Source: Bispira polyomma
Lineage: Eukaryota
Length of the DNA stretch: 64,000 nucleotides
Assembly: GCA_965649765.1 (NCBI GenBank)
Contig: OZ287757.1
Location: 23,188,001 to 23,252,000 of the forward strand
Direction: 5' to 3'
Under the pieces are notes generated by a model. It was not told the origin of the DNA and did no database searches. It saw nothing but the letters and a program-made list of their open reading frames with translations. Shown here piece by piece: positions 14,245 to 51,615 of the stretch (positions within the stretch are counted from its first letter, which is position 1; every line of letters begins with the position of its first letter). The position numbers and the translations under genes are program-made.

Positions 14245-15700
14245 TTACATGGCCAATTTTGTGATTAATTCCACATAAGCTTTGGATAAAAACCAACGTG
14301 ATACACCGTCAGCCTGTTTGTTGTCTACTCCATATATATGTGAATATGATGTATATATGTGAATTTTGGACAGCAATATGATGTATATATGTGAATTTTG
14401 GACAGCAATATGATGTATATATGTGAATATTGGACAGTAATAAGATGTATATATGTTAATATTGGACAGCAATATGATGTATATATGTGAATATTGGACA
14501 GCAATATGATATATATATGTGAATATTAGACAGTAATAAGATGTATATATGTTAATATTGGACAGCAATGTCATATTTAGCTGTCATGGCCCATAGAGTA
14601 CGGACAATGCCATGAGATATGCAACTTCCATTTTCTCAGAATTAGGTACATTAACAACTGCCAAGTTGTCATACCAGACCTGGATTTTCTTGTGTTGAAA
14701 AAAATGAGCCCAAGTTTGTGATGCAATTACAAGAATTTTTAGATGGACGATTGTTAGTCCCTGCACTTTGTGAACTGGATATGGTGCAGTATTTTCGTTT
14801 TCCTCCTATATGGCACCTATGCCAGTGAGCGACACGTCGACATAAAGATGTTGTTGAGGTTGAATGTGATTATAGACAATTTTGCCATTATAATAGACCA
14901 AAAAAAAATAATAAACCATTCCATGTTTTGAAAGAAATTTTTATGCAAGAGGGTTTTCACATGCTTTGGCATTTGCTTCAACATATGGAGAATACGATTG
15001 ACAAATAGCCTCGCACGATAGATGCATTTATGCATGTATATGAGTCTTCCTATCAAGCTTTGTAATTGTGTGCGTGAATCTGCTAAATATTAATTATACC
15101 CATACATATACACAGACACTTGATCTGGATTAATGGGGAGTTAACGTTGTAAAAGCCTTTTGACATCTATTATCCGATTATATCAGCGATGTAATTCCAA
15201 ACGTGGAATCCATGTGACGTCATGACATTTGTTGTTCTTTGAAATAACACACTGCCAACTTAAGACCAAACGTAACGCTAACATCAATATATGTATGGCC
15301 CCCATGTCAGACGCCGATGACGTTATAGTCTTTTAAGTCTAGGCACAGATTGTGAAAGGCTCGACTGACTTCAGCCTTATATAAATGTACATCAGGTCCA
15401 GCCTCTGCAATTCTATTAACTATGTCATTTAATGTGGGAATGATATCATGTAGGAGTATAACTTTGGCCATCATATATGCCATTTTGTATATTAGTATTG
15501 ACTGAATTACCATGAAGCCAATTTAAGTCAACTATTACTCTCCTAGATGTGTTTGGTATAAGTCTAGATAACATGGGTGATAAGTATGTATAACAGTGTC
15601 ATCATCAGGACCAAATATTGCCCTGTGTTTAAGTTCCTTTTCTATATATTTATATCAGCCCAAATTTGGGAATGGTTATAAAATAAGATGAAAATACAAG
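14245..15700 (-). mobile_element. Decayed Ngaro/DIRS RT-RNase H fragment
   Basis: Broken ORFs with PTLNDIV..LYKAEVSRAFHNL, IGRLIYMHKCIYRARLFVNRIL, YDNLAVV, HIYGVDNKQADGVSRW, homologous to pol 33078-35504. Confidence 0.85.
14345..14572. repeat. 32-bp minisatellite, ~7 copies
   Basis: Unit atattggacagcaatatgatgtatatatgtga. Confidence 0.9.
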
Positions 15701-15861: not shown

Positions 15862-18631
15862 AAACAAAAAAAACAAAAAAAACATAAAGAAATGGTTATA
15901 CAGAAAAGGGTGACATATATGCAGATTTGAGAATGGAGGCTGTGGTTGAAGGGGTTATCTTTTCCACTAGTATTATTTCACAAAAGGGAAGAACAATTCT
16001 TCGTCACTGCCACGAAGTAGCATGGCTAGTCAGCCGCAGAAATGCTATACTTTACTGTATTTCTATTTTCAAACTACTTGCTTATCACAGTCACTCCTCA
16101 CCCCAATGCTGCATTCAGATAACACTCCCTCTACTCTCCTCGGCATTTCCCGCCTTTCTTATATTCTCACTGATAAGTCAGAAGACAAATCCTTCTTACT
16201 CTCCCCAGCACTTTGGCGCCCTTTCTAGGATAAGCTCATTATTAAGTCAGAAATCAAACTAACAACATCAAAAATCTTAAGCTTTCAACAGCCATATTGG
16301 AAATTTTTATACATTATCACTAAAAATCCAATTGCCTTCTTAAGTGTTTATTATTTTACAAAATTACAACAAGTTTCACACAGAGGATAATATTGTGCAT
16401 CTTTTAAGTTAATTTGTGTGGATATTAGTTAAAAATGGGTAGAGGAAAAAAAACTCGTGTACTAGATGTACTAAATGTGAAATCTTTCACACACGACCAG
16501 TAGGAAATCGTTGCAAACGAACCACAGACACAAGAGATGATGATCTTCTCCAGCCTAGCCTTAATAGTGATGATCAAAGCAGTATTTCTGAAGCAAGTGG
16601 CCAAGTTAGCAGTGAAAAATTCTATCATGAGGCATACTCCACACAGCAGAATATGATGGAAACCCTGTTATCTACAGTCTCCAAGCTACAAGAAGACATC
16701 TCAGATCTCAAATTTGGAAAGATGGAGACCAACCGTGTGTCGCCTCATAACGCACCCCGAGATCCTCACACTTCACTAGGACTTCATGACAATCAGAGAG
16801 ATCACACTTCCAGCTCGTTTGCGACACATCCTCTCGCTACAGATTCTCCCTCATGTCACCTCACTAGTTCACAGAGCCGGTATGACCACGAAGCCACTCA
16901 ACGAGCTTTCAAAGATACCATTCTCCCGACTCCCGAAGTGCTGAAGCAGTCATCCCTCATACAGAACGAGGTCTCCCAACGACTAGCGAGATATGAAGCC
17001 TGGGCCACAGATGAGAGCATTCAAGGTAAGCTCACTACCAAGCAAAAATCTGGCCGTTATAATACCTCCGAGTTATGTGTATCTGACCACATGAAGCGGT
17101 GGCCAAATGAGGCCTGCTTATCTGGTATTAACAAAAAGCGTGTCTCTTTTGATGAATTGTCAGTCTCACAGTTCGCTGCTGGCCAGATCCAAAATATTCT
17201 TGAGGTTAAGAATCCTGATATTTCACGAGCCATGCTCTCTCAACTAGCAGACACCCTCAAAGATGCCTCCAACATCTCCTGGGAGATTGCTCGTGGAGCA
17301 TATGCCAGTAATATGCATGATATTGAAGAGGGTCGTTTGAGTTGGATAAATGACACAAAATGAAATATGAATCGGCTTTCTTATTCTCAAGCCCTCATAT
17401 CCAGTACTACCACACCTTTGACCAGTTCGTTTTCTGCTTCATCTTCAAGCAAAAATGAAATGCCTTGCAGGCGTTACCAAAATAATGACTGTCAACACCA
17501 GAAAGATCATGAGGGCAATAACATTACATTTCGACATATCTGTGCCAACTGTTTCCGTCTCAACAAGAAAATGAACCCACATCCCGAGTCGAAATGCTTC
17601 AAGTTACACGGCCGCCCAAATGCGCCCACGAACGCCCCTCAATAGGGACGCGGACTGCCAGCAGACACCACAGCTACTCACCTTAAGTCCACTTCTGATG
17701 TCGTTATTAACCATTGTGTGCTGACAGGAAATTGTGATTCAACCAGTGGTACTAATAAGCAAATTTGTAAGAAAACCAGTTTCAAGAATGATTTCATAAA
17801 TAATTTTAGTTGTCAACTCAATGAGTCAATTACTCAATTGAGTTATAGAGATGCCAGTAAGACATCTCAAGCATTACCTGGCAGTGTTTCCCTTAATGAC
17901 TTATGTTGGCAAGAATTGCCTGTTAAATTGAACGTTATGAACTCTGTTCAGTGTGATAATAATGGTCAAAAACCATCAGCTGTCTTTCATACAGTAGACG
18001 TTTATATTAGCACCAGTATTTTTAAGTCTGATTGTCTAACTTATTGCTATATTGTTTGTCATGATGAGTCATGTATTTCAGGTGTATACAAATGGACTTA
18101 TGGCCTAAATATGTGGTACTTACAACAAACCCCCTATACTCTGGATCACATATGGCCATTATCCTATGTGAACACCACTTGTGCCACAACACTACATCAC
18201 ACTCAACCAAATCAGTCAAAAAACTGTGCAAAACATAATGTGGCACATACACACACAAAAATTGGACAAACTTTCTATTATACAGATAGCATTGACAAGA
18301 TTTGCAAATCAAATTTTCAACACCAGAGCAATTCAGATTGTAACCATCAAGCTCACTTACCCCTTGAGCATCAAATTAATCAAGGTAATGCACTAGTGCA
18401 TAATGACAAGGGTATGAGTCAAAAACCTATATTACTGCATAATGAAACTTCTAGGATTCAAAAACCTATATTAGTGCACCACTGACTCAATGAAACAAAA
18501 CAAAAAAAAAACAAAACATAAAGAAATGGTTATACAGAAAAGGGTGACATATATGCAGATTTGAGAGTGGAGACTGTGGTGGAAGGGGCTATCTTTTCCA
18601 CTAGTATTATTTCACAAAAGGGAAGAACAAT
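15862..18631. repeat. ~135-bp direct repeats (15862-15997 and ~18494-18631) flanking the plus-strand Ngaro copy 2 fragment
   Basis: aaacataaagaaatggttatacagaaaagggtgacatatatgcagatttgag..gggaagaacaat occurs twice with few mismatches. Confidence 0.85.
16436..18485 (+). mobile_element. Ngaro copy 2: disrupted gag (16436-17645) plus in-frame N-terminal part of pol, 3'-truncated
   Basis: QGK..KSGRYN..WPNE..KRVSFDELS..EEGRLSW and Cys/His knuckles (CRRYQNNDC, HICANC..HPESKC) align with gag 31356-32720; premature stop at 17361-17363. Confidence 0.9.
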
Positions 18632-25800: not shown

Positions 25801-28104
25801 AATATACAATAGTATACACTTGTATTTCCTTATCACAGAATGCTGGTCTTGTACAGACAATGTTATTACACACTGCCCTGACATCTTTCCTATAGAGCAG
25901 ACCCCATGGACCACCATGTTCCAGTCCATCTTCAGCCAAACAACTTCGATGTACACAGACATACCTGGCAGTGGAGAGACAACCTCCGGTAAAACAACCT
26001 CCACAAGCACATACATACCTGGCAATGGAGAGACAACCTCCAGCAAAACAACCTCCATGAAAGCAAACATACCTGCTAATGTAGACACAACCTCCAGCCA
26101 AACAACCTCCATGAAAACAACCATACCTGTTTATGGGGAGACAACCTCTAGTCAAACAACCTCCATGAAAAACACCATACCTGTTAATGGGGAGAAAACC
26201 TCCAGGCAAACAACCTCGATGAACACAGACATACTTGGTAATGGAGAGACAACCTTCAGTCAAACAATCTCGATGAACACAGACATACTTGGTAATGGAG
26301 AGACAACCTCCAGCCAAACAGCCTCGATGAACACAAACATACCTGGTAATGGAGAGACAACCTCCAGGCAAACAACCTCCATGATCAAAGAGATACTTGG
26401 TAATAGGGAGCCAACCTCCAGCCAAACCCAAACAACCTCTGTGACAACAAACATACCTGATAATGGAGAGACAACCTTCAGTCAAACAAACTCCATGATA
26501 ACAACCATACCTGGTACTGTAATGACAACCTTCAGTCAAACAACCTCTACGAAAACAGACATACCTGGTAATACAGACGTGCCTCGTAATAGGGAGAGTT
26601 CATGGCGGCCAGTCAGGGGCAAGAGAGCCGTCTGTTGTTCAGACACGTGGGTGTAACTTCAATATTGAATAACTCTACTTATTATATTTCATAGAAAGTC
26701 ACCACTGGAGAAATATTTGTTATATAAGTCAACATTGAAAAGTCTATGGACAGCATAAATTGCTTTTCTCCAGATTAGGTAAAAGAGATTAGTCACTTAA
26801 CTTTCCCAGTAGCTCTTCGTATATTTATAAGTAACATCTTATTGGATAAGCTCCTGTTGTATTTGTTATTCAGCTGACTACCCTATATAAAAATCTTCCC
26901 AGTTATAGTCAGACTTGTTTTATGATCAATTCTTCTAATCTGGTGTGTATCTGGCCATCAATAAGCTGTACCATAGATTTATAGATTTAACCGTGGTCAA
27001 GGTCAGCACATTGTCCAATGTGAAATATATTGTACCTAGTTCAGTGCTACCACAAAATCTGCTGAAGAGCTGTTGAGATTAACATATTGTTACATCAGCT
27101 GTGCAATCTATATTTTTCAGGTTCACAGTAAAACTTCCCTTCACAGACAAGGTAACCCTGAGGGGAAAGGCTTGGTACCCTGTGTGGTTCAGAGACATAC
27201 ATAAGACTCTACTGGTTAACAGACAGCTGTATGAGGAGGCCAGCTGTGCAGGGTAAGTTTTGAATATGAATTGATTTGGGTTGTACATCATTTTCTGATG
27301 GCCAAATCCAGTATTCTAGCAAGATTTTAATCTAAGTCAGAGTTAAGCTCAAATCTGAAGTATAAAAATAGTTATATGTGACTGCATATTTAAAATCTGC
27401 ACCAAAAGCACTATTAAAATGAATGACGACAGCTATAGGTTATTTTATGTACACAAATTTCCACATAGCCTTGGTTTGAACTTAGGCATGAGGTTCTTAA
27501 GAGGACACAGGCCCTGCTTTATAAATGGAGTAAACCAGTAGTAAATGTACTAGAAACCACTGACCTCGGTAAAGTGTTTGGCACATTGTCTCACACAAAG
27601 AAAGCAGTAAGAGTCAAATCCCTAGTCTTCAGATGTGAGAGGTTGAAAAAAATACATTTACCCATAATAAATGTATGTTTACAATTCATGAGGCAGTGAA
27701 CTTAATTCGCTTCATGGTTCAAGTTTGGAACATAGTAGAAAATACGGAATATGGATTGCTCCTTTGGGAGAGATAAAATAATTTTTTTTATATGATATGG
27801 ACCAAGTCTGAAAGTGCTCTATAACACTTTTAGAGTTTGTACATATCTAGTGAACTATGATTTTATTAGAGGAAGTAGTTTTATAGTTTTAGTCTTTTAT
27901 GTTAGAATACAAATAAGTATCTTTTATTTCAGTATCTGTCCCCACTGTCATACTGAACAGACAGTACACTTTGTGCTAATGACCGCAAACCGACCCCATC
28001 CTAAATGGGGACATCTCTTCACACTCTTCAATAGTTTCATCCTGCAGAACCTCAAGTTTGTGGCTGTCTACAAAAATGGCTACTGTAAGTGTTTCTCACC
28101 ATAG
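19850..28104 (+). CDS. Secreted Spaetzle/cystine-knot-like precursor with expanded mucin-like repeats, copy C; exons 19850-19976, 22871-22981, 25839-26646, 27121-27252, 27933-28104 (449 aa)
   Basis: Same exon phases as copy A; 1350 nt open; RGKR and all seven C-terminal Cys conserved; exon 3 is 564 nt longer through in-frame repeats. Confidence 0.85.
20712..21032 (+). CDS. THAP zinc-finger ORF (transposon-derived)
   Basis: MVHCVVFGC..W..RLCSDHF..F..LKPEALPS matches the C2CH THAP signature with an AVPT-like box. Confidence 0.85.
   Translation: MVHCVVFGCKNRSNNQKPGQKVHLCAFTRDEAVKVIWIKCLKKEKYQWKVGHRLCSDHFDRSQFEVDPIRMAELGYPNARTKLKPEALPSFTYKTVSKKTLSTLIK
21180..21390 (-). mobile_element. Divergent tRNA-derived SINE (second MESC-like family) inside the Kolobok
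   Basis: Minus strand has a tRNA-like head, a TGTGGGAATGTTGGCAGTTACTTGC core and a (CAAT)n tail. Confidence 0.55.
23723..25203. mobile_element. Non-autonomous TIR element with TGT..ACA ends and 4-bp TSD (Ginger-like) in intron 2 of copy C
   Basis: TIR tgtta(c/a)aactgataatgtatcaaaaac; flanks tgag / cgag; about ten subterminal gatac(a/g)ttattgg repeats at 24988-25200. Confidence 0.65.
25961..26560 (+). repeat. Coding 54-bp tandem repeat, 11 units (consensus IPGNGETTSSQTTSMNTD)
   Basis: Read from ORF 25784-26656; 11x54+6 = 600 nt. Confidence 0.95.
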
Positions 28105-29348: not shown

Positions 29349-31355
29349 CTCATCATCACCAAATTTCATGTAAAGTAAATTTAGTACTTATTTTGCAATA
29401 GTGATGTTAAACAAACTAACCAAAAGATAACCTAAAACATAACATTGGTACATCTTTGTAGTTGAGTATGGGATTTGCTAAGCTAACTTCTGATTTATCT
29501 ATAAATGAGTGTTTTGCATTCAGCTCAGAAGTTAGTGCTAGATGAGCTTCTTATGCAAACTTTTATCGGTCTAGTTATGTGACTGTATGCTCTGTAAATA
29601 TATGATAAACTATTCTACAACATAGGCAATTCATCATTCATCAGTGGGCTTTCTGATCACCAGGCCAACCGCCTAACCAAGAAAACCATTGGCAACTTTC
29701 GTCATATAAAATGTATTACTTTCCCTTAAATATGATTATCTGCCATCGTATAGTGGTACACATACCTGTCAGTAATCACCTGGACTTCTCCAACTCCCTC
29801 TAAGACGATGTCACTAAGGCCAGTCTTCTCAATCTCCAGGCAAAATTGCCTCTGTCGCATTGCTTATTAAGTTCAATACCAAAGATGCAACACCCCTCTT
29901 TTCCAAGAATACCTGAATGAATATGTTGTATAATTAATTTATCAAAAGGGATAATAGATATCGAAAAGGAATGACCTTGAATTAAATATATAAGTGATGG
30001 TAAGATACTAGTTTGTGTGAATTTGAGTATAATAGTACCTCTTAAATTTACAATACTTGACTACTATGGTCTGGCGCAATAACAAAACCTTGGTGGACAA
30101 TAATTTGGTCAACAAATGTACATAATGAAATTAAAACTGCTGATTGCGTCTCCCAAATGGGACACAATCAGTCCAATTGATCAAGAATCATGACCTGAAA
30201 TAGGAACTAAAGAACCTTCCGTCCTCACTTAATCCCTGGATTGACCTGTTTCTATTCCTAGTGTGTTTGTAATTGGGAAAAAAATATTCCTAAGAACACT
30301 TTTGAAAACGAACAACACCTATTTCTTTGCACTAAAACATCACTGTTTTAGACACAACTTTCAAGCTGGATTGGTTAAATTCTTAATATTACATTCAAAT
30401 TTGATGTATTTTGATTTTTTTAATATTACTCCGAATATGATACTTGTATAATAGCAAGAGTGAGAATAAATCTATATTCTACTGTTTATTTGAACTAAAA
30501 AAAAAACAAAACAGAAGCTCCATACAACCTCTACAAGTATGAATGTGGTAATAATAAGTTAGTGGAAACCTTAAGCCACACTTTGATTTTATTCTACATT
30601 TCTATTTTATTGTAAGACTCACACTTCTTTTTAAAAAATACTATGCAATTATATAAGAATTGGTATGAAGTTGATACAAAATGTTATTTGTTATTGTTTT
30701 TTAGTTTCTTTTTCTTAGAAACTTACATTCATTTATAAGACGGTCAATTCCTTCTCTTATATAACTGGTGTATTTTATCTCTTGAGATATTTTACATCTT
30801 TCTCATAAAACATTTTTGCATTACTAGCTTGTAATTTGTCTTCTAATGACATAAGTTTACATGTGACATCATTCTTATAATCTTTGGTTTCATAACACTC
30901 TATTGTTACTACAAAAAAATGGACTATTTTAAGAAATCCACTAGGTATAAATTCAATGGGTACAAAGGTGTGAATACCAGTAGCCTGATCCTAATTTTGG
31001 CAAAAGAACACCCTTTTTGGGGCTATTGTGATTTGAGATGTTGCACAACACGACTACTATAGGGGTCTGTTAGTTCAGTCCAACATAAGATTAATTCAAC
31101 CTTAAACACCATAGATTATACCTACTTTTTATTTTCTTGTTTATTGGGTAACAACCAATTAAATTCAAACCCATCCACCCATGACCGCTCCCCTCCACTT
31201 TCCACCATTATTAACTCGAGACTTGAACGAGCAACAACATATATTGCAAAAACGACTGGAATGTACATAGAATTTTATTTTGGTTTGATTTTAGTTTGTT
31301 TTTACATTATACATTCAGTCTGACAATATATATACACTTTATATGAACTAAGAAG

Positions 31356-32720
31356 ATGGGGAAGACGGCGAAGAAGCCTCCTGTTACGCGGTCTACTACT
31401 ACAAAGGTGAGGGGGAAGAAAACTAAGGGTGTTCCGACAGACGACGGTTCACAGGTAACTGATATCATAGCCTCAGAAGTACATGCCCAGCTCACCGCTC
31501 TAGCCTCTAGAGCTTCGGATCTTTCTTCAGATGCACTATCATCGATCATAACTACGTCCGGAGCTACTTATGTTCAGGCCACACCTCCACGTGCGCCTTT
31601 GAGTACAAGCGTTGTACCAGAAGTCGGGCTCTCTCTACCATTTAATTTCCAAACGCTTGGTAAAGATTCGGCTTATGGCGGGATCACACCACCACGTTGC
31701 CAGACTTTACACACAGATCAACAACTCCCTTCGGGTAGCGGGTCGACTTCAGACAACTCTTCACAAATGCTAGCCATTTTAAAGCGACTTGAGACTTCAA
31801 ACGCCGAACTCGGCAAACGTATCGAACGGGTCGAGACTGCTCAGACTCAACAAGCACTTCTCAATAGGCAGGTAGCAGACGTCGCCGCAACTCAGCTCTT
31901 CACGGCGAATCCCAGTACTTCAGCAGTGGCTTCGGCGGGAGCGAACCCTGGCTTGGTTCACCAACTTCCGGTTCAACACGAATTCGGCCGTGATGGAGTG
32001 GTTCCACAACTAGATACACTGAGGGCAATTCCAGCCATCCAAGCAGCTATAGCCAGACAGTTGGCTGGGTATGATGCGAATATACAGCGGGACATTTTGC
32101 AAGGTAAGCCAGTAAAACAAAAATCTGGTCGTTACAACAGTGCTGATATTTCAACAGCAGACCCCAAGTTTAGATGGCCGAATGAGGGGTGGGTCGGAGC
32201 GAATGCAAAACGTAAACCTACATTTGATGAACTTTCTTTGGCCCAATGGGCAGCAGGGCAAGTAAACAACGCTCTTTTAGTGACAGACTCGGTCGTGATG
32301 AAAGGTATGCTTCAACAGATAGTACATACACTCAGGGACGCGGCCGCTCTCCCCTGGCCGGTCGTCCGCACGGCATACGGACACAGTATGCAAGAGGTAG
32401 AGGAAGGACGTCTCACGTGGGACAATCAAACGCAGTGGGCGCTAAATAGACTTAGCGCATCACAGACGGCATTAGTAAGCAGCAATACTAACAATGTCAC
32501 TGGGGATTCGAGCAAGGGGAAACAAAGTAATGAATTCAAGACGATCTGTAAATTGTATAATAATGGGAAGTGTTCTTATAAAGCTGACCATGCAAATTAC
32601 CGTCACATTTGTTGGCATTGTTCAAAGACATTAGGTAAGGATGCTGTGCATCCAGAGTTTAAATGCTTCAAATTTCAATCCAATTTGAACAAGAATCCAG
32701 AACTTAGTACGAATCGCTAG
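31356..32720 (+). CDS. gag: Gag-like ORF1 (454 aa)
   Basis: Basic N-terminus, coiled coil, C-terminal CKLYNNGKC..H and HICWHC..H..C knuckles; homologues in three other copies here. Confidence 0.9.
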   Translation: MGKTAKKPPVTRSTTTKVRGKKTKGVPTDDGSQVTDIIASEVHAQLTALASRASDLSSDALSSIITTSGATYVQATPPRAPLSTSVVPEVGLSLPFNFQTLGKDSAYGGITPPRCQTLHTDQQLPSGSGSTSDNSSQMLAILKRLETSNAELGKRIERVETAQTQQALLNRQVADVAATQLFTANPSTSAVASAGANPGLVHQLPVQHEFGRDGVVPQLDTLRAIPAIQAAIARQLAGYDANIQRDILQGKPVKQKSGRYNSADISTADPKFRWPNEGWVGANAKRKPTFDELSLAQWAAGQVNNALLVTDSVVMKGMLQQIVHTLRDAAALPWPVVRTAYGHSMQEVEEGRLTWDNQTQWALNRLSASQTALVSSNTNNVTGDSSKGKQSNEFKTICKLYNNGKCSYKADHANYRHICWHCSKTLGKDAVHPEFKCFKFQSNLNKNPELSTNR

Positions 32721-35504
32721 GGACAATACCGTCAGCCAATCAGCGGAAATAGCAAGTTTAAAGGTAAGCAGAGTAATGATATTAACCAATTTATTAACAT
32801 TGAGAATAATGTTCCAAAACTCAATAAATGTAGGTATACAAAATTAAATTCTAACAATGCCAATAACGGTGATGTTGAAGGTATAAACAACTCTGAATGT
32901 TTACATTATGAGAACATTGGAAAAAATAAAAATGTCAGCATTCAGGCAACCAAGGAGTTTGAATGGGGGCATTATGATAATTATGATATAGAATATAAAA
33001 ATGTCGTAGACACTGTTGAGAAGAATGGTGTAATAGATATAATTCAATGTGATCAGAATATTACAGACAATCTGAATATGGGAAAACCAAATGGCATGAA
33101 TTGTAATGATAAAAAGGTGATTATAAATGAACTTTGGCAGAATGTTGTTAGCCAACTTGACATGGTTAGTAAAGTTAAAATTTCAGTCACGAATTGGTAT
33201 GCAATTTCTACATACGGGGGTGTTATGGCACCTGTAGTGTATATGTCTAGTGTAAGTAGTCAACATTTTGACAACGGCTTTTATTGTATATGTCATTCTG
33301 ATACTGATAATTGTATGATCTATTCACCTACTGCCATAACCTTTACAGATAAATTGCAGATCATAGATTGTTATGAGACTGAGATTTGGTTGAATCACAG
33401 TATAAGCAATGATGTAACACCACATAGTATGGTCATGCATTCTCACACTGATAAGCAACAGTCGGTCAATGACCATTACAATTATACTAAAGATCTGCAA
33501 TGCTGGGAGCGTTATGGCTATGATTATACTTCATACATTGAAAACATTATTGACACATTAATGTTGCAATCTGAGGTGTCAGATTATAGTTCAGGTTTAG
33601 TAAATGATGATTCAATAAACTTAACTGACAGTACTACCAGGCAACAGCAGGTGAGTAATAACGACGTACCAGGAAAAGACGCATCCCTCTTCTTCGAAAA
33701 TTGTGACAGTACATATATACATGAACTTAAGGAAGTTACCAGTTCTGGTGACATTGACATTAATGATCCAGATAAGAAAAAAGGCTTTCTTGCACTTTCT
33801 AATACAAAATTTGAGTTCAATGGCCCTGATAGACAACCAGTGAACATTGATTCCATTGATGAGATGATTAGAATAGGCAAGGTAATTAGTGACACTCAAC
33901 TTCCTAATTACAAACAAGCTAGATTTCCTATTGGTTCGGGGTTGAACCCAACTGCTTGGGAAGACATATTTCATGATTACCCTGATCAATTGATAATACA
34001 ATACATTAAGTTTGGCTTTCCTCTAAGTCTTACAAATCATAATAAGTTAAAGAACACAGAAATACACAATCATTTCTCTGCTTTACAATATACCAAAGAA
34101 GTTGGTCAATACCTGGAGAAAGAAAAGAGTAAGGGAGCTATGTTGGGCCCAGTCAGAGCAATAAATTCCTCTCAACTTCATTGTTCTCCATTGTTAACTC
34201 GTCCCAAAGATATTGATAAAAGACGGATAATCTTGAATCTCTCATATCCTGATGGAAATTTGTTGAATGACAATGTTGATAAAATACACTTTCACGGTGT
34301 AAAATTTAAATTAAAATTTCGTACTATTGATGACATCACACAGGCAATTATTAATACTGAAGAACCAACTCTATTCAAAATTGATATTTCGTGCGCGTTT
34401 CGTAACCTCAGAGTCGACCCAGCTGAGGCCATTAAGTTGGGCATACTCTGGAATGACAACTTGTACCTTGATCCGGCAATTCCCTTCGGCTGGGTACATG
34501 GAAGCGGGGCATTTCAGCATTGTTCAGACGCAGTCGCTTACTTTATGAGAAAATCCGGTTTTAACTTATTATGCTACATCGATGATTATATATGTATAGT
34601 ACCTAAATCCAAGGCTCAGCAGGGTTTTGAAATTCTTATAGATCTCTTGACAAAACTAGGTCTACCCATGAATAGTGAAAAACTCACTCCTCCCACCTGT
34701 AACATTACATGTCTAGGTATAGACATAGACGTGCAGGAAGGTACTATTTCTATAACTAAGGAAAAAATTACTCAAATTTGGAACCTTTGTTTAGAAATAT
34801 ATAACAAAAAATTCATTTCCAAAAATAAATTTCAATCCCTTTTAGGCAGTTTACTTTACATACATAAATGTGTCAAACCAGCGCGTACTTTTATAAATAG
34901 ACTGTTAATGGCGTTTAGAGGTAATACAGACAAACGTATAAAGATCGATACTGCTATGAAAAACGATTTACAATGGTTTCTAACATTTCTCCCAGTTTAT
35001 AATGGCATCACATATATTCAGCCTACCATCATTCAACACGCGAACGAACTGCATCTTGACGCTTGCCTTACAGGCTGCGGAGGAATCTGGGGTGAACAGA
35101 TATACGCAACCCCTATTCATAACCTTTACAACAGAGATCTCAACATAGCACATTTAGAAATGTTGAATATCATTATTGCAGTAAGAATATGGGCTAATGA
35201 CTGGGCCCACAGCAAACTTAATATTCATTGTGACAATATGGCTGTAGTATTGGTTGTCGGATCACAGAAAACCAGAGACGACTTTTTGGCATTCTGCTTA
35301 AGAAATTTATGGCTGATAGCAGCAACATTCGACATAACACTCACCATCGAACACATCCCTGGTAAGCAAAACGTTATAGCTGACGCTCTTTCAAGGATTT
35401 ACTCAGCTCATCCACCTCCTTTGGAAATGTTAAATACACTCAATAACAAATTCCAGTGGAAACAAGTCACACTGGAACACTTTAATCTCAATTTATTTGT
35501 TTAA
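32721..35504 (+). CDS. pol: Pol: reverse transcriptase + RNase H, open in the gag frame from the gag TAG onward (first ATG 33078)
   Basis: KIDISCAFRNL, PFG, CYIDDY, LGIDID, LDACLTG, HCDN, HIPGKQNVIADALSR; no stop between 32721 and 33078. Confidence 0.95.
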   Translation, partial: GQYRQPISGNSKFKGKQSNDINQFINIENNVPKLNKCRYTKLNSNNANNGDVEGINNSECLHYENIGKNKNVSIQATKEFEWGHYDNYDIEYKNVVDTVEKNGVIDIIQCDQNITDNLNMGKPNGMNCNDKKVIINELWQNVVSQLDMVSKVKISVTNWYAISTYGGVMAPVVYMSSVSSQHFDNGFYCICHSDTDNCMIYSPTAITFTDKLQIIDCYETEIWLNHSISNDVTPHSMVMHSHTDKQQSVNDHYNYTKDLQCWERYGYDYTSYIENIIDTLMLQSEVSDYSSGLVNDDSINLTDSTTRQQQVSNNDVPGKDASLFFENCDSTYIHELKEVTSSGDIDINDPDKKKGFLALSNTKFEFNGPDRQPVNIDSIDEMIRIGKVISDTQLPNYKQARFPIGSGLNPTAWEDIFHDYPDQLIIQYIKFGFPLSLTNHNKLKNTEIHNHFSALQYTKEVGQYLEKEKSKGAMLGPVRAINSSQLHCSPLLTRPKDIDKRRIILNLSYPDGNLLNDNVDKIHFHGVKFKLKFRTIDDITQAIINTEEPTLFKIDISCAFRNLRVDPAEAIKLGILWNDNLYLDPAIPFGWVHGSGAFQHCSDAVAYFMRKSGFNLLCYIDDYICIVPKSKAQQGFEILIDLLTKLGLPMNSEKLTPPTCNITCLGIDIDVQEGTISITKEKITQIWNLCLEIYNKKFISKNKFQSLLGSLLYIHKCVKPARTFINRLLMAFRGNTDKRIKIDTAMKNDLQWFLTFLPVYNGITYIQPTIIQHANELHLDACLTGCGGIWGEQIYATPIHNLYNRDLNIAHLEMLNIIIAVRIWANDWAHSKLNIHCDNMAVVLVVGSQKTRDDFLAFCLRNLWLIAATFDITLTIEHIPGKQNVIADALSRIYSAHPPPLEMLNTLNNKFQWKQVTLEHFNLNLFV

Positions 35505-35510
35505 TTGTAG

Positions 35511-36487
35511 GTTCTACCAACATCAGCAGCAGCTTTATACCCTCTGCTTGGGCCAGGATTGATACAGCCATCAGGCCGAAGACTGCTAGCACATATAAAG
35601 CACAATTTAATAATTTCCTGTCCTTTAATCACTTTGTGGGCATTTCTGAGGTAACAGTTCATTCAGTGTTAGTATTTCTAGAATATCTGGTTCAGGCAGG
35701 GTTATCACCTGGTGCAATAAACAACTATGTAGCAGCTATTAAATACATGACACAAAAATTCCAACTAGATACCACTCCTTTATCTCATAAGTACATACAG
35801 CTTTTCTTGAGAAGTTTGACTCATAATTCAACTTTCAAGCCTAAACATAAAGGCATTTTCAGCATACAACAGTTAGCCAGCATATCTAAAGCATGTGACA
35901 TTTTACACGATCCACCACTATTTAGGGCCATTTTTCTGCTGGCATTTTTTGCCTTCTTAAGGCTTTCTAATATAGCATCACATTCTAGGGCTTCATTTGA
36001 TCCTACAAGACAATTCCTCAGACAGGATCTATTGTTTATTCTACCTGGAGCCCATATTACATTAAAATGGGCAAAAAATCTACAGAATAGATCTGATACA
36101 CACAACATACAGATTCCTCAATTGCAGAACTTGGTGTTATGTCCAGTCCTGGCTTTGAGGAAACTACTAGCTTCCAGGGATTTACCTCCTCATGCACCTT
36201 TATTTGCATCAGCTACTCCACCTTTTTACCCAATAGTGGATTCTCACGTGAGGGCAGCCCTTCAAAAAATATTACAACACATTGGGATAGAATACAAATT
36301 TCATGGATTTCACACATTCAGGCGATCAGGCGCCACATACGCATTCAATAATAATGTTTCACTACAGAATATTATGTCACACGGCTTATGGAGATCCTCA
36401 GCAGTGTGGACTTATCTACAACAAACTTCAGAAGCAGCTTCTGTAGTTCCCCTCACGTTCGCTTCCACCATTCCTTCTTTCTCTTAG
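35511..36487 (+). CDS. Tyrosine recombinase with no N-terminal ATG; probably a spliced exon starting at 35511
   Basis: Catalytic motifs FLRLSN, KWAK, HTFRRSG, HGLWRSSAVWTY; homology to copy-1 YR extends to the AG at 35509-35510. Confidence 0.9.
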
Positions 36488-37291
36488 TTGAGCTTGGGTG
36501 TCAAAATTTCAAAGTAAACTTTTTAAAATTTTTACTTTTATTTCATTATCTGTATTTGTATATATATATACTAACGTGTAAAATAAAATCCTCAAACAAG
36601 AGTTTTACTGTCTTGTCAAATTTACAACTTTCCATCCCCTTTAAGAATTATTTGGGAAAGAATTATAACTTATTAGCTTCACATCTTATAGAACTGGACT
36701 GTGCACAACACGACTACTATAGGGGTCTGTTAGTTCAGTCCAACATAAGATGAATTCAACCTTAAACACCATAGGTTATACCTACTTTTTATTTTCTTGT
36801 TTATTGGGTAACAACCAATTAAATTCAAACCCATCCACTCATGACCGCTCCCCTCCACTTTCCACCATTATTAACTCGAGACTTGAACGAGCAACAACAT
36901 ATATTGCAAAACCCACCACCTCCCCTTACCACAGCAAGAAATAGGGCTAGTTCTAGGATACGAGTGGCTTGGGTTGGGGAGAATCTATACCGTGTCGCGT
37001 TCGGTTCCTGCTTCCATAAACTTGCCCTTGGCGTGGCTGCTAAGGGAATTCGGAGCTCTGCGAGCAGGGACCGACCGAGGCTAGGCGTGTTGGTGCCGTA
37101 GGTCGGGTTCTTTCCTTTCCAGGACATTGTAAAAATTTCATGTGTTAGGGTATATAGGAATATTATATACTTTTTCTTTGAAGAATTCAGTTTCTCATAG
37201 GGATTTTGCTTGAATTCCCATTGATATTAAGATCTGTGACCCATTACATGATCTTTGACAGATTAAGGTATAATTAGTAGTTAGTTAATGT

Positions 37292-37765
37292 AACCAGTTA
37301 TATTACAATCTTCTCCTTTAAGTAATCTTCCTCCTACAGTGTAGTGTAATATAGACGGTTTTAAGGGAAGCTGGGCACCCTTGAGCTGTCGCCAATGTTA
37401 GAAACTGTGGCTTCACAAATACTAGTAATTATGTGCAGTATTATATGTAAAATTGAATATTTAGCGTACCACAAGACGGTCACATATGTGTGTTACATTG
37501 TTGATAATGCAACAAAATTTAATTATGATAATCCAGTTATATTACAATCTTCCTCTAAGTAACCTTCCTCCTACAGGGTAGTGTAATATAGACGGTTTCA
37601 GGGGTAGCTGGGCACCCTTGAGCTGTCGCCAACGTTAGAAGCTTAGCTTCAGAAATACTAGTAATTATGGGTAATATTTACATGTAAAATTTATACTTAG
37701 TGTACCACAAGACGGTCACATGTATGTGTTATATTGTTGATAGTGCAACGAATTATAATTATATA
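37292..37765. repeat. ~240-bp tandem duplication in the Ngaro A2-B2 spacer
   Basis: ccagttatattacaatctt.. starts at ~37294 and ~37533. Confidence 0.85.
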
Positions 37766-39588
37766 TGCATTTATGACGTGTTTATGATGTGTTTATGGCC
37801 CAATACAGGGGTAATGCATTATTCTAATGACAGGTTTATGCCAAAAAAAAAAATGTAATGGACGTGTACTGTGTTAGAAACTAGTTTACTAGTAAATGTC
37901 AGGGGAAAGATTTGGTCAGAGGCACAAGTGTACTTTGCTGAATAGTTAACACACCCTATTGCTCTATATTAGGTTCAAATCAGTTAATAATTGAACTAGT
38001 TAGTAAAAGTTTGTTTTAATAATTTTAGTCAACTTCTATTAATATTTAGATGCAACGATAAATTACATTATCGTATTTGTGTATACTATGATCTCTATTG
38101 GATCGATAGAAATTCAGTTATTGATACTTCTTTTATTATATGTATTATATATGTTGGTAGACACTGATAGGGGTGTCAAAATTTCAAAGTAAACTTTTTA
38201 AAATTTTTACTTTTATTTCATTATCTGTATTTGTATATATATATACTAACGTGTAAAATAAAATCCTCAAACAAGAGTTTTACTGTCTTGTCAAATTTAC
38301 AACTTTCCATCCCCTTTAAGAATTATTTGGGAAAGAATTATAACTTATTAGCTTCACATCTTATAGAACTGGACTGACATTATTGGCAGTGTTTTTCTCC
38401 CCATGTTTTCTACAATTTTCCCATTTGATATGTCTACTTTTACTCTACAATTTTTGCTGCTGTTATTAACATTATGATCTATATTTTTTTAGATCGTTAG
38501 CGCTATCAGATCTGTAATACTGAACTTTGCAGTCCTCGTCTGCTTCTAGTCTGCCCATCTTGAGTCCATTTCGTCTCGTATCTGGACTATCTGTGACAAT
38601 AACATAATAGCTCATATTAACCTTGTTTTCAAAATTAACTGTATTATAATTTTCTGACAATTTTGTTACAGGCTTTATAATCACTTCGTCAGTTACATTT
38701 TTATTAACTGTGTTCACACATGTGTTATTATTCTTAATGGCATATAGCTGCTGCTGTTCATAAGTAATTTCAAATTTTGTAGCAGTTACATGACTGTTCT
38801 TTTTGTTCTCACATTTTAACTCACTGTTTACAGACTGTGGTTGTGCTAGCCGAATGGCCCCTTATCTGTTACCTACTGTATTCTTAGCTTGTTTGTTGGC
38901 GTTATATAATTAGTATATTGGGTGGGAAGATAGCAGTAACAGTGGGTTCACAAATTTGACGTCATAGACCACGTGACCACCCGTAGGAGAGATCCCCCCT
39001 CCCCCCCTGTGACCCCCCAGAGGGGGGATGCCCCCCCCCTCCGGTAATGGCTTATTGTCACCCCCTTCTTTGTCAATCCATTAACTAGTGTAGAATGACC
39101 AGGTGGCCGCAGGTGTTTAATCAGTTCATGTGACACCCCCCCACTCCCCTTGCCATTCCATTTGGAACAGATGGCTCATTGTTACAGCTTCTTTGACAAT
39201 CCATTACCAAGTGTGAATGAGCAGGTGGCCGCAGGTGATTATCAACATTATTTATTGCTGAATGACAGATGGCGCATTGTTATCCAATTCATTTAAACTG
39301 CATTTAATTTAAAAAAAAATTGCTTGATAATGAGTATAATGTAGAATGAGCAGGTGGCTGCAGTACATGGGCCCTTGTCATCAAACCCATTTATCAATCC
39401 ATTTGAAGGCCTTTTAATTAAATTCTTTGACAAAAGAAGTGGTATAAAATGAACAGATGCCCCAAACCCCTTGAAGTATTTGTCCATTAAATATTCAATT
39501 AAAAAATGAGAAATGGCACTAAAGGGTATAATTCTGCCAATTCATCTTTATTTGAAAAAATTTATAAAATTGGGCCATCATCATAGGT

Positions 39589-39819: not shown

Positions 39820-39862
39820 AGAAATGAATACTTAAGAAATAGATGCTACAGATGAGAAGAAG

Positions 39863-40363
39863 GTGAAAGTGCATTCCGTCGGTCTTTCAGGAAATGGCGA
39901 ACTGTTTGTATTTCTGATACACAAGGAAGGAGAAATAGTCTTATGCAGCGACCTACTGAAACAACTAAGGAAACACACAGACTCTTTGAGCGAAGGGCTG
40001 CTAAAAATCTGTCTCAAGAAGAAACAGACGGAGTACAATGTTCATCTGAACAAAAACGTTTACGCTTACGCAAAAGCTCCCTACCGATGTGTCCAGATTC
40101 GTCAGTTCGAAGAAGTCGATGGAATCCTACTGCCCACCAAAGAAGGGATTTCTCTGAAACGGGTTCAATGGTTCACCCTTCTTGATATCTTTGAAGAAAT
40201 AGATACTGACTTTTTAACTCCGAACAAGAGAATCTGTCCAGAGTTCCACAGTAACCAAGAGGACTTCATGACTTGTCCTAACTGCTGTCTGCCTAAGAGG
40301 AACGAGCGAGAAGAAAAGTACAAACCGTTGAAGAAGAGGCTGTTCGACTCGGAGAAAGACTAA
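39863..40363 (+). CDS. PC4/Sub1-like ssDNA-binding protein with C-terminal C..HxNQ..CxxC motif
   Basis: VQIRQFEEVDGILLPTKEGISLKRVQW matches the PC4 core (DIR..G..P.KKGISL..QW); start codon uncertain. Confidence 0.75.
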   Translation: MKVHSVGLSGNGELFVFLIHKEGEIVLCSDLLKQLRKHTDSLSEGLLKICLKKKQTEYNVHLNKNVYAYAKAPYRCVQIRQFEEVDGILLPTKEGISLKRVQWFTLLDIFEEIDTDFLTPNKRICPEFHSNQEDFMTCPNCCLPKRNEREEKYKPLKKRLFDSEKD

Positions 40364-42124
40364 TTTCCTATTCGTTCTTTTCACTGACAATAATCTGTGT
40401 TTTTTTTTCTAATTTTTTTTTTTTTTTTTTGTAAAACGGTAATACGTTTTTATTTTGTAAAGAGAACCCTTAGTATATAAAATATAAGTATTAATTCTTG
40501 CAATGTCTATTATTAAAAAAAAAAAAAAAAAAACTCTCAAGCTTTGTTCGTGTAAACTTGTGTACTTAAAAGTGATTAAAATTTGTGTGAATTATCATTT
40601 GTTGTTTTGACTCGAAAGCGTTCACATGGCTTTGTTAAAGTTTGAATCCCCCTCTACTGCAGTGCAAGGAAATTTAGACATAGATTTGTAAGAGAGCCTC
40701 TAAGCGAGCCTCTTCGGTGATACCGACAGCAACCAAGTAGTATGATTAAGCCGGCTAAATTGTTAATGTTGGTTAACAGTTCGAACTATCGAAGTATCCA
40801 TGTATTCAACTTTAAAAAAATATATATGACTCATCACGAAATAATATACACAAAATAATTAGAAAAATGCATTTTATTACCACTATGATTGTAATAAAAT
40901 TACAGAAATACAATGAAATTTTATGGAAAATACATGCAACTAAAAATCATACTCAAAACGGAAGTCAATGTTCAAATCTACATGTAATTTCTGAAATAGG
41001 AGAAACTGCTTGATACAACAAAAGTTAAATACATGCCAAAGCTCACAACAAATTTAATACAGTTGTTTATGTTTCTTCTTTACTGGTCTCATCTGAATCT
41101 GTTTGTTTCTCACTTGTCTCTTCTAAATCTGTTTGTTTCTCACTTGTCTCTTCCGAATCTGTTTCTTGCTCACTCGAACTGTTGTCACTTGATTCGTCCT
41201 CCTTTTGAGGAACATATAATTATTTTTTGCCAAAACCCAGCAAATCACCTTGTCTTTATCCTTTTGTATCGATGATAAGTCTTGGATTTCATCCCAAATC
41301 AACTGTAGGAGTGACTGGGATTTGAACAGCCTTGGTATGTTGGAGACAGATCTCATCCCTTTAGAGGTGCTTATAGGGGAAGCTATTGGAGAGGAGGGGG
41401 AGGTGATGGAGCAGGACTTGTTGCGGGAGGCAGAACAGCCCCAAGCTGAGGACGAACAGGCTTATGGTAACGATGAGCAGAGCCAACAGGGGTCTTTTGA
41501 GCAGCAGCAGCAGCCCCAACTCGACGACGACCACAGCGATCACTCCCAGCAGCAGCAGTAGCAGCAGCCACAACTCGAAGATGACCACAGCGATCACTCC
41601 CAGCAGCAGCCGCTCCCACCTGCAATAATTCAACCGCAGTATTTATCATGTGGTCTATGTATGGAGCTGGACTATGTCACTGAAACAATAGTCTTTTCAC
41701 ATACCGCACCGTATGTAAGACTCTACAGGGATCAGTGTCAAGTACTGTGGAACCATCGCCGGGAAATAGAGCTGTCTCTAAATAATGCCAACCGTGAAAT
41801 TAGGGTCTGCTACCTTAACTATTGTGTAAGCGTCAACGATATTTACCAACAGCTTCGAATCAAGAAACATTCATTCGACGAATGTCAAGGAGACAGAATA
41901 TATTTTTTAGGATGTGAATGCACAATCTCGCAGGTAAATTTTCACATATCATACTCAAAACGGAAGTCAATGTTCAAACCACGTCATCGACCATTAAGCA
42001 ATTTTGTATCGTACGTGTGCAGAGGCTGCAAACCTCTATCCTGAGGCTTAGGCTGAGACAGCCTAAGGAGGCTAAGCCTAAGAGAGCCTCTAAGCGAGGA
42101 AGGGAAAGGAGGGGGATGACCAAA

Positions 42125-43404: not shown

Positions 43405-45017
43405 ATGGAAAATCCGGAGTCATTCAAATGTATGTCATGTGAAAAATCATACAAGTGGAAATGCGACCTTAAAAGGCATTTTTTGTTAAAACATCAAGAA
43501 GAGACACATTACAACAACGATATCCCACAAGAAGAACAAAATAGTGTGACATACCTACCTACTGGTGAACTGCAATTAATAAAAAATGAAAATTTTGAAT
43601 TTCTACACCCATTTACTATGAATGTGAGTGGTCCAACCGGATGTGGCAAAACATTTTTCATCCTTCTTTCAACTTCTTGAAAATTGTAAATCACATCCCC
43701 GTCCTGAGAGAATTCTGTACCTATACAAAAGATGGCAGCCACAGTATGACATATTACAGAAACAAGTAGAACCAAGGATAGAATCCGTCAGCGGTATGCC
43801 ACAGGATTTTGATCAAGATTCATTTTTTAATGTGGATAAAAATAACCTTATTATATTAGATAATATGATGGATCAAGCAAGCAGTGACAAAGCTGTATCT
43901 GACCTCTTTACAGAAGGGTCTCATCACAGAAATTTGAGTGTCATTAATTTGACCCAGTCACTTTTCCCCAAAGGTAAAAATAGTGCGACTCAAAGAAGGA
44001 ATACTCAATACCTTATCATATTCAAATCACCGATGTGTCAAGATCAAGTTAGAGTACTAGGACGGTACATGTTCTCCCGGGATTTCAACAGCTTTATGAA
44101 AGTATACTCTGAGGCAACAAAGCAGCCTTACGGGTATCTTATCATTGATGGAAAGATACAAACACCTACATCTGACCGACTCATCACAAATATTATGCCA
44201 AAAGAAATCTGCACGAAGGCACTTGTCCTAAATTGTAACCAAAGCAACAGCGAAAGATCTGATATTAAAAGACAAGTAGGTCATGGTACAAATGATGGCT
44301 ATGAAGATATATCAATGTCCATTGTACCACCGCCGGGTATACCCAATAAAACAATCGCCCAAAGCCCATCGGGTATAAAAAGGAGGTCAGGAAATAAAAA
44401 AGACTATTTCACACATCTACAGCAATCAGAGCACCTCAATATGGATTTACACGAGGCAACGCCGTGTAAATACTGTGGCATAGTGTTTGAGGATACAGAC
44501 AGGTTACAGGATCATCTGGTTAATGGCTGTGTTCGTGCCACAAAGAAGGAGACTGCATATAAATCTTCTGCATCGCTTAAAGACGATTGTACTGAGCCAG
44601 CATTGAAGAAACAAAAGCTGTCACATGCTATCAAAGACGATATTTCTGAAAATCACGTTTTCAATAGACTTTACAGACAATCTAAAGATGCGTACAATGA
44701 TGAATGGAACCAAACTCGTAAAGAGTATATCGAAGATGGGACAGAAGAACGAGCAGCTGAAATGGAAGCAGACAGAGAGCTACTGCCAGATTACAAAAAC
44801 AATTTTTTAAAGCGTACAAAATGCTTCTAAAGTCAATAAAAATAAATATATGTTCACAGATGTGTTTCAAGGAGATCAAAAGGAGGACGAATCAAGTGAC
44901 GACAAATCGAGTGAGCAAGAAACAGATTCGGAAGAGACAAACGAGAAACAAACAGATTCGGAAGATACAAGTGAGAAACAAACAGATTCGGATGAGACCA
45001 GTAAAGAAGAAGCATAA
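43405..45017 (+). pseudogene. Maverick A32/FtsK-like packaging ATPase with C2H2-type fingers and acidic tail; frameshifted
   Basis: CMSCEKSY..LKRHFLLKH finger; Walker A GPTGCGKT in ORF 43405-43680; Walker B LIILDNMM, LFTEGSHHRNLSVINLTQ and PYGYLIID in ORF 43628-44830. Confidence 0.9.
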
Positions 45018-45692
45018 ACAACTGTGCCAAATTTGTTGTGAGCTTTGGCATGTATTTAACGTTTGTTGTATCAAGCAGTTTCTCCTATTTCAGAAATTAC
45101 ATGTAGATTTGAACATTGACTTCTGTTTTGAGTATGATTTTTAGTTGCATGTATTTGCCATAAAATTTCATTGTATTTCTGTATACAATTTCATTGTATT
45201 TTTATTACAATCATAGTGGTAATAAAATGCATTTTTCTAATAATTTTGTGTATATTATTTTGTGATGAGTCATATATATTTTTTTAAAGTTGAATACATG
45301 GATACTTCGATAGTTCAAACTGTTAACCAACATTAACAATTTAGCCGGCTTAATCATACTACTTGGTTGCTGTCGGTATCACCGAAGAGGCTCGCTTAGA
45401 GGCTCTCTTAGGCTCAGCCCCCTGAGGCTGTCTCAGCCTAAGCTTTAGGATAGATGTTTGCAGCCTCTGCACACGTACGATATAAAATTGCTCAATGGTC
45501 GATGAAGTGGTTTGAACTGGATTTCCTGACTAGAAATATTATTTACAAACCTCGTCGATCCCTTAAAGCAGAATTCTTATTTTATCTTTCATTCACCATA
45601 AGATTTGTCTTACCTGTATTGTTAAAGCAGGAACTATGTTCCTTTTTTTACTTTGGTAAATTTGCTAATGCAAGAGGCTTTATAATATTCAC

Positions 45693-49800: not shown

Positions 49801-51581
49801 GATAGCAGTGACCGGGCACAGGTCAGATCCAGGTAAAACGGGAAGGGTTAATAACTTAACCACGTCATTTGTTTGTGGAGTTTTGGACCATTTTACCACT
49901 AACACTGCATAGCCTGGCTTGAACATTGTGTCAGCTCTTGCCAGTTGCTTTAGTGGTGAGTAAGCACTAACAGAATGAGGACACAAATTGGACAGACGTA
50001 AAAGACTGAAAAAGCTTGTTAGATAAATTCCTTTGAAAATCAGCCCCATATAGATTGCTTCACATTTCTTTACCAATTGTTTGAGCAGAGGTACATCAAA
50101 CAGAGATTTGTAGAACGCTTACCACTGCTTGATTGTCACATTTGACCAGAATTTTTTTACCTTGCCATTTCTTGGCCCATATTTTGAGGGCTACTACAAT
50201 GTTTAGCATCTCTAAGTATGCAATGTTATCATTGTGCATATGGTCTGGTAATTTAAGCTGGTATACTTGATTAGCATGGATGCCCCCCACTCCTGTGAGG
50301 CATGCATCTAATTCGATTTCACCAGTTATGAGTTTATGGTCAAAGAAAGAGACACCGTTAAACTGGTCTATAAATGTCTGGAACCAATTCAGATCACGTC
50401 TCAATTCAGTGATTATTTTGAACCTTTTTTTGCTGTGGTTATCTCTCAGTAATTTGAGCATTCTATTTAGAAACACCCGAGAATATTTGATACACTTTGC
50501 AACGAATAACAAAAGGCCCAGCAACGATTGTAGTTCACGTTTAGTGCAGTGAGTTTTTACTTCCCAGAGTTTACACAATTTTTTAATCTCGCCCAATAAT
50601 TGTTTAAATACTGTTTCCACTTGCTTTCATGCAATTGTGACTGAATGGGAATTTGTAAACCAGCATAGTTATGTCTACCATCAGCACGAAGGTGTGCATG
50701 AGCCTTTAGCATATTAGCTTCTATTTTATTTCTATTTTTGTCTTTGATTTGTTTTCCTAACCCAGAAAGGGGGGTAAACCCATACTGGAATTCACTTTGC
50801 TCTCACCATTTAACAAAGGTGCTATTATTCTGTGCTTTTACAAGGAGCTCGGCCCTGTTGCGTTTCTGCTTTAACACCCCACTATACTTATCACCCTGAA
50901 CAATGCACTCATTGTAATCTGTTTGGTTTTCCCGTTCACCTTTTAGTTCTAAGTGAGGCCGTGGGTTGGTGTTATTCACACCTCCTTCTTTTGACCTATT
51001 GTTCTTATTTTGCATTGTCTCACTAGTTTTAGGTTTGGTGTTGTTCACACCTCCCTCCCTGTGGTTATTGTCTCTAATTTTGTCAATAGTTTGTGTGGGT
51101 TGACGTGTCACATTGTTTTCACACATTTCCTCCCTAGTGTTCACTTCGGTTAAACTTTCAAACCTGTTGTGAAGTGGTATTTCTAGGCATTGTTGTGTAT
51201 ACTTGTTAGCACTATTGAGAACAGATTTTGCATATTGTTTGGCCATTCTGTTGTCATTCATGCTACTTTCCTTATTTTGTCCATTGGACTGTTTATGCAC
51301 CCTGTTGGGGATTGTAACATTACATTGACCTTCAGTTACAGTCTTTTGTTTAAAAGCCTTCTTCCCAGTACTACCATCAACACGTGTACTTTGACCTTGG
51401 TGACTTTTACACCCATTTTGGCTTTTACTTTTAACCATTTCACAATAACTAATGTCACCTATTGTGACCTTCATGTATGAACACATTTTATGTACAACAT
51501 TTTTATTAAACAAATGAAAATCCTGGAAATCAGAATGAAAAACTACTCTACTGACAACATTTTCCATTTCTATTAGTCTTA

Positions 51582-51615
51582 CCACTGCGTTGTCGCAGTG
51601 GCCCCCTAGTTTTTT
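51582..51615 (-). promoter_or_regulatory. Programmed -1 ribosomal frameshift signal at the gag-pol junction
   Basis: Minus strand A AAA AAC (51615-51609) in the gag frame, 7-nt spacer, hairpin CCACTGCG-ACAA-CGCAGTGG; pol ORF is in the -1 frame. Confidence 0.8.

Follow-up and report, generated by a model that had tools for sequence, protein, structure and literature searches.

A candidate stop-codon readthrough junction between gag and pol in a Ngaro-type retrotransposon of Bispira polyomma

The element and its gag-pol junction

How might a retrotransposon translate its reverse transcriptase (RT) when the frame that encodes it follows gag across a single in-frame UAG and lacks a usable start of its own? 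Such a junction lies in the 64,000-nucleotide (nt) stretch of Bispira polyomma DNA analyzed here (assembly GCA_965649765.1, contig OZ287757.1, positions 23,188,001 to 23,252,000, forward strand; hereafter the window), an AT-rich region (GC 29-45% per kb) that contains an intact tyrosine recombinase retrotransposon of the Ngaro type at 31042-38376 on the plus strand (Table 1). Its gag-like, RT/ribonuclease H (RNase H) and tyrosine recombinase open reading frames (ORFs) all lie on one strand, and the order A1-ORFs-B1-A2-B2 is that of split direct repeats, a layout that, without a methyltransferase, defines Ngaro (PMC4157794, PMC3266345, PMC8547959, PMC3783388; all papers are cited for the portions of their text available to us). 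Absence of the methyltransferase separates Ngaro from PAT and DIRS1 (PMC4157794, PMC3266345); PAT lineages devoid of the domain exist (PMC4157794). A Pfam search found no methyltransferase domain, pol stopping about 35 residues past its RNase H match, and neither DDE integrase nor protease among the element ORFs. The RNase H match (PF13456) is weak, and the RT domain PF00078 is carried by homologues of pol. The gag frame, open over 31347-32720 with its ATG at 31356, had no Pfam match; 26 gag homologues were found, and profile matches comprised 1622 representatives at E<=0.001. By layout and domain content, and not by an RT/RNase H phylogeny, the element would be placed in Ngaro.

Table 1. Coordinates of the element, its junction and related features in the window
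Feature	Position	Strand	Remarks
Split direct repeat A1	31042..31256	+	215 nt; 98% identity with 36702-36916
Gag-like ORF1	31356..32720	+	454 codons from ATG; C-terminal Cys/His finger; ends in TAG
Predicted phase-1 donor	32101..32109, cut 32103/32104	+	rank 2 of 79 GT sites
Single in-frame stop UAG-GGA, candidate readthrough site	32718..32723	+	type III context
Stop-free stretch before first in-frame ATG	32721..33077	+	119 codons; start of hypervariable pol linker
Pol frame	32721..35504	+	linker, RT (YIDD), RNase H
Possible extended stem, not robust	32726..32884	+	arms 32726-32745 and 32867-32884
Tyrosine recombinase ORF	35486..36487	+	PF00589 and integrase SAM-like matches
Predicted phase-1 acceptor	35490..35511, cut 35510/35511	+	rank 3 of 328 AG sites; score +4.9
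Repeat B1	36496..36701	+	206 nt; 100% identity with 38171-38376
Repeat A2	36702..36916	+	98% identity with A1
Spacer between A2 and B2	36917..38170	.	1254 nt, atypical; read depth similar to ORFs
Repeat B2	38171..38376	+	100% identity with B1
Copy 2 junction	17643..18485	+	TAG-GGA, then 279 open codons; decayed element
Sister element cassette	51581..51615	-	A_AAA_AAC, 6-nt spacer UAGGGG, 9-bp hairpin

As an earlier, sequence-only reading of the window had recognized, gag ends at the TAG of 32718-32720 and the same frame then continues into the RT. It stays open for 927 codons (32721-35504), with the onset of the RT domain about 355 codons past the stop, behind a hypervariable linker; the +1 frame closes at 41 codons. 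A -1 frameshift at 32718 was considered and finds no support: no slippery heptamer occurs in the last 20 gag codons of the intact element, and the -1 frame is shut after 10 codons. In frame 0 an ATG does not appear until codon 120 (33078). The 119-codon interval that precedes it has 31% GC and holds 0, 8 and 25 stops in the three forward frames; shuffled versions carry 9.9 stops on average, and not one in 5000 was free of them. The same reading had called these codons ATG-free, which is true of their own frame but not of the others: 14 out-of-frame ATGs fall within 32721-33077, and scanning across them to ATG 33078 is therefore unlikely. The gag-stop-pol junction is a real feature and not a product of chance.

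Might the TAG have arisen by nonsense mutation of an ORF that was formerly continuous, or be read as sense in a different genetic code? Sequencing contigs bear on both possibilities; they derive from three runs, at most two samples and one study, possibly the window's own source, their variant letters, indels and joints are those listed for them, and read depth is not a copy number. Record 9 of the X2 contigs spans 32712-33239 at depth 295 with no gaps and keeps the TAG, its four differing letters all being listed at sites other than the stop. None of the five letters listed in 32721-33150 creates a stop. Divergent relatives in X1/X2 have depths of 13-15, and the depth pattern fits a young family of many copies. 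TAG also terminates the recombinase ORF and is found in 0 of 1705 sense codons. Among 228 gag-like proteins examined, 100 have a recognizable terminal finger, 81 of which end 13-18 residues past it. Because the stop is kept in the deepest contig, gag proteins usually end there and TAG has no sense use, neither a private mutation nor another code fits; despite the stop-less gag-pol relatives in the database described below, both ideas are largely refuted and hardly credible.

Related junctions and proteins

The arrangement recurs in a decayed element of the same window, copy 2, whose gag has 38% identity with that of the intact element and a premature stop inside. As the sequence-only reading reported, TAG-GGA-C at 17643 is followed by an in-frame continuation; its first ATG is codon 98, and the 97 ATG-free open codons before it were stop-free in 10 of 5000 shuffles. 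No RT lies downstream of this junction. For DNA relatives, eight collection scans yielded two loci, both from a single scan with the other seven empty: a whole element from a metagenome (L001) and an RT fragment (L002) that was kept outside the analysis. The RT of L001 is 39% identical to that of the intact element, and its gag and pol are in frame across one stop, with 113 codons before the first ATG (stop-free in 5 of 5000 shuffles).

Two further places in the window carry a stop followed by GG. At 38864 (minus), in what had been listed as copy 5, TAA-GGG does precede 129 open codons (5 of 5000 shuffles), but its standing as a copy is unproven, because no tblastn match to any gag or pol protein retrieved was found and another repeat starts at 38903, just upstream. 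This stop-free, AT-rich stretch (38472-38864, minus), 95 nt from repeat B2, is possibly an orphan pol linker. TAG-GG at 47284 (minus), 6 residues past a gag finger, was rejected as a sixth junction; it marks the edge of another repeat, common to 38903-39300.

The junction of a sister element, decayed and located at about 49500-52650 (minus), is of another kind. Its gag stop at 51608 is held in the spacer of what is likely, judging from its sequence, a -1 ribosomal frameshift cassette: the slippery heptamer A_AAA_AAC ranks among the most shift-prone (PMC5009743), the hairpin has z scores of -4.6 to -5.2 (0 of 200 shuffles), and past the stop frame 0 is shut after 8 codons and the -1 frame is open for 267, matching the pol protein P0145 over residues 12-361 (E 1e-23). 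Alternatively, the layout may reflect a decay indel, or a splice to the strong phase-0 acceptor at 51522, 86 nt past the stop. Since UAGGGG lies within this cassette, a GG context is not specific to readthrough.

Stop-less relatives are found among the proteins. Thirteen of the 100 fingered gag proteins extend past the usual end. In P0352, gag, Gln-Gly at the stop position, linker and RT entry form one frame, and Gln-Gly recurs in P0347, a member of the same cluster. P0301 carries Tyr-Gly at that point, and the N-terminus of the pol protein P0040 is matched by the P0301 tail (E 6e-16). As judged from their sequences, P0352 and P0301 show the in-frame gag-pol layout in other families, whichever code is used. 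The other extended proteins have Trp-Gly (P0263), Tyr-Asp (P0285), Tyr-Glu (P0015/P0386) or Gln-Arg (P0226) at this position. A single base change separates TAG from a codon for Gln, Tyr or Trp, and the codon after this position begins with G in 5 of 6 extended clusters. Pol homologues were called with at least 330 residues ahead of a marker, which in the intact element lies 396 codons past the stop, in 44 of 116 cases; their starts form a continuum with no common Met position. A long-protein search, itself a weak one, returned no fused gag-pol of 801-2285 residues, and none of the best 150 matches of the gag profile search was longer than 434 residues.

Routes to the pol protein

What, then, would join gag to pol? 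We consider it fairly probable, from frame layout and sequence, that readthrough of UAG-GGA does so. It is the best-supported explanation because frame 0 alone is open, the stop recurs, stop-less relatives are in frame, and the context is of type III. A few ribosomes would insert an amino acid at the UAG and produce a Gag-linker-RT-RNase H fusion of about 1380 residues, and most would release Gag there; from a single RNA, the level of readthrough would thereby fix the customary excess of Gag over Pol. The hexamer UAGGGA, in both the intact element and copy 2, is one of the type III set (UAGGGV, UAGGUA, UAGGAU) and is the type III readthrough hexamer in Moloney murine leukemia virus (MoMLV; PMC13517186), in line with the parallel to gammaretroviral UAG-G readthrough drawn in the sequence-only reading. 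The type III context is weak alone, and a downstream structure is usually needed, sometimes kilobases away (PMC13517186, PMC3159437).

Might the junction RNA hold such a stimulator? One candidate, an extended stem resembling those of alphaviruses, came from a 280-nt fold; with the letters of the window its scores were reached by 1 of 300 and 4 of 500 shuffles, in a test chosen once the fold had been seen. A 20-nt inverted repeat (32603-32622 / 32853-32872) also brackets the stop, and its 3' arm overlaps an arm of the post-stop stem. The bracketing stem scores z -3.0 (1 of 200 shuffles) in a window picked after it was seen, and is not claimed, having no counterpart in copy 2 (z +0.74). The two pairings might be competing structures of the same RNA, or might be fortuitous.

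Several observations weigh against readthrough. The type III context, normally dependent on structure, is a weak signal by itself, and the first 80-140 nt past the stop hold no compact stem (z +0.84 and +1.25 against shuffles), in agreement with the earlier remark that only a weak stem is visible there. The pseudoknot that the same reading proposed looking for downstream did not emerge, since 28 of 100 shuffles had an H-type score as good, and pairing of the junction across the whole element was equaled by 18 of 30. With the letter that all three runs have at 32877, the extended stem is matched by 72 of 500 shuffles, and it is absent from four other junctions. In-frame UAG-GGA is confined to two DNA junctions, those of the intact element and copy 2. 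L001 has TGA-TAT, not UAG-GG, and a strong phase-0 acceptor 150 nt past that stop, which together make it ambiguous. Among the proteins, the tails of P0015/P0386, P0285 and P0263 end within 46 residues and that of P0226 has no pol match; the code of the gene caller is unspecified for the stop-less proteins, whose Gln or Trp may be stops; and the similarity between the post-stop peptides of the intact element and P0352 is not significant. Finally, the local context of Tca2 of Candida albicans failed to direct readthrough in yeast, its bypass mechanism being unresolved, which shows that gag and pol can share a frame across a stop with no readthrough signal close by (PMC2194720). The earlier proposal that this Ngaro lineage uses readthrough gains from the frame, the recurrent stop, the relatives and the hexamer, and falls short in that no downstream structure was established; its conserved GG context stands for the TAG-GGA of copy 2 but not for copy 5, which is unproven, for the frameshift-type sister element or for L001.

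The chief rival is splicing, since a spliced mRNA that links gag with the recombinase is itself probable for this element. The recombinase frame has no ATG before residue 88, and its mRNA probably consists, to judge from the sequence, of the first 250 gag codons spliced onto this start-less frame; the recombinase would thereby be made separately from pol. Splice sites were ranked with a rough, self-made matrix over 79 GT and 328 AG sites, and an in-silico join of the predicted phase-1 donor and acceptor gives a single open frame of 574 residues. L001 has equivalents at 510/511 (phase 1) and 3951/3952, whose join is likewise one open frame, and copy 2 has an equivalent of the donor at 17025/17026. 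The donor-site Gly is present in 27 of 27 gag proteins and is followed by Lys or Arg in 27 of 27, a pattern for which protein constraint could be an alternative cause. None of the 15 joints listed for the contigs is a GT..AG joint matching the predicted splices.

Pol itself might come from a spliced mRNA in which an early phase-0 donor (31406/31407 or 31454/31455) is joined to TAG/G or a nearby acceptor, the stop being merely the last three bases of an intron. This would also account for the open interval; TAG/G fits the acceptor core, 31406/31407 is in phase and the best donor ahead of the stop (rank 1 of 79), and the elements with strong phase-0 acceptors past their stops, L001 and that at 51608, speak for it as well. 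We nevertheless regard a spliced pol mRNA as unlikely. The TAG/G acceptor scores -3.7 (rank 96 of 328 with the rough matrix), far below the recombinase acceptor, and ranks 19 of 143 in copy 2; no AG in the 360 nt past the stop scores above 0. The last gag residues are poor in T (0.08 against a background of 0.19, in 26 non-redundant gag tails), whereas pol ends ahead of the recombinase acceptor reach 0.35. Only 6 of 22 full-length gag proteins have the Val-led phase-0 donor pattern in their first 30 residues, and in copy 2 every phase-0 donor scores 0.3 or less.

A separate start of pol, of the sort raised for Tca2, through an internal promoter, termination-reinitiation or some other bypass, at ATG 33078 or a near-cognate codon, seems more doubtful still. 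A reporter of the Tca2 junction gave no local readthrough and uncovered a minor promoter there (PMC2194720), the context of ATG 33078 is fair (A at -3, G at +4), and a stimulatory structure was not established at the junction. Separate initiation would leave the stop-free codons before the ATG unexplained, both here and in copy 2, and it is at odds with the 14 out-of-frame ATGs ahead of 33078 and with pol homologues that share no N-terminal Met position. Adenosine-to-inosine editing, which would turn the UAG into a Trp codon in the RNA, is very improbable. The UAG triplet is a favored ADAR context and P0263 has Trp at the stop position, but no stable duplex forms over the stop (z +0.14) and other relatives have Gln or Tyr there.

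Readthrough thus set beside its rivals, might one genome use two recoding routes at UAG-GG, readthrough in the lineage of the intact element, apparently with no compact stimulator, and a -1 frameshift in its sister, both with a recombinase spliced from gag? We put this forward as a tentative and somewhat doubtful reading. If it were true, one RNA would give three proteins by three mechanisms, in the first case of readthrough in the order DIRS.

Other features of the window may be recorded here. The 1.25-kb spacer between A2 and B2 probably belongs to the element family; its first 200 nt are GC-richer, and it has an internal 236-nt duplication (37294-37526 / 37533-37762). An Rfam scan of 30900-39000 gave no match. 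Shortly 5' of the gag ATG, 31295-31319 is a T-rich tract with an acceptor-like AG, and similar sites lie 5' of gag in the sister element (52654) and in L001 (52); these hint that a leader exon may be spliced on. Fragments of related elements include a pol end with recombinase at 1-1317 (+), 66% identical to the intact element, a decayed RT/RNase H at 14368-15651 (minus) and a decayed gag at 47300-48032 (minus). An ORF at 39836-40363 (+) matches the PC4 domain (PF02229, E 3.6e-6), and nearby large inverted repeats (40689-41208 / 44876-45410) flank a 400-codon ORF (43628-44830); this region is possibly a DNA transposon or polinton-like piece. Arrays of a 54-nt tandem repeat at 25876-26577, 5042-5314 and 11713-11985 lie inside a larger repeat present three times.

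Comparison with known systems

A gag-stop-pol layout is itself known from gammaretroviruses and Tca2, and the mechanism of readthrough is well known, but RT production in elements of the order DIRS is hardly described. No report of stop readthrough in this order was found in the literature searched, although subscription reviews, Repbase or supplementary tables may have one. The available portions of papers on DIRS and Ngaro elements (PMC8547959, PMC9210276, PMC6681497, PMC3783388, PMC3266345, PMC4157794, PMC7192593) report no readthrough, nor do those of PMC5009743, PMC13517186 and PMC12440569 for this order, and how Ngaro pol is translated is not described in the portions available of PMC3783388, PMC8547959, PMC4157794 and PMC9210276. 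A many-copy and apparently young family would be a simple test case for type III readthrough without a compact pseudoknot, and with the neighboring frameshift-type element at hand, it can be compared inside a single genome how gag-pol recoding evolves.

The element resembles described Ngaro elements in its A1-ORFs-B1-A2-B2 order, its gag, RT/RNase H and tyrosine recombinase ORFs and its lack of a methyltransferase (PMC3783388, PMC8547959, PMC4157794, PMC9210276). Unlike them it has the 1.25-kb A2-B2 spacer, and its gag and pol abut in frame, whereas the ORFs of Xenopus Ngaro all overlap (PMC9210276). Tca2 likewise has gag and pol split by one in-frame stop, but there the stop is UGA with a predicted pseudoknot, in a long terminal repeat element with an integrase (PMC2194720). 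The junction is most reminiscent of the gag-UAG-pol of MoMLV (PMC13517186, PMC3159437), with which it shares a terminal Gag Cys/His finger, an in-frame UAG soon after it, the hexamer UAGGGA and an RT downstream. Several differences should be set against this likeness: here no protease follows the stop and about 350 hypervariable codons precede the RT, no pseudoknot like that of MoMLV turned up at +12, integration is by a tyrosine recombinase, split direct repeats are present, and readthrough is only a candidate. If the candidate is correct, readthrough of UAG-G in the retroviral style reaches a group of retroelements that has neither protease nor integrase.

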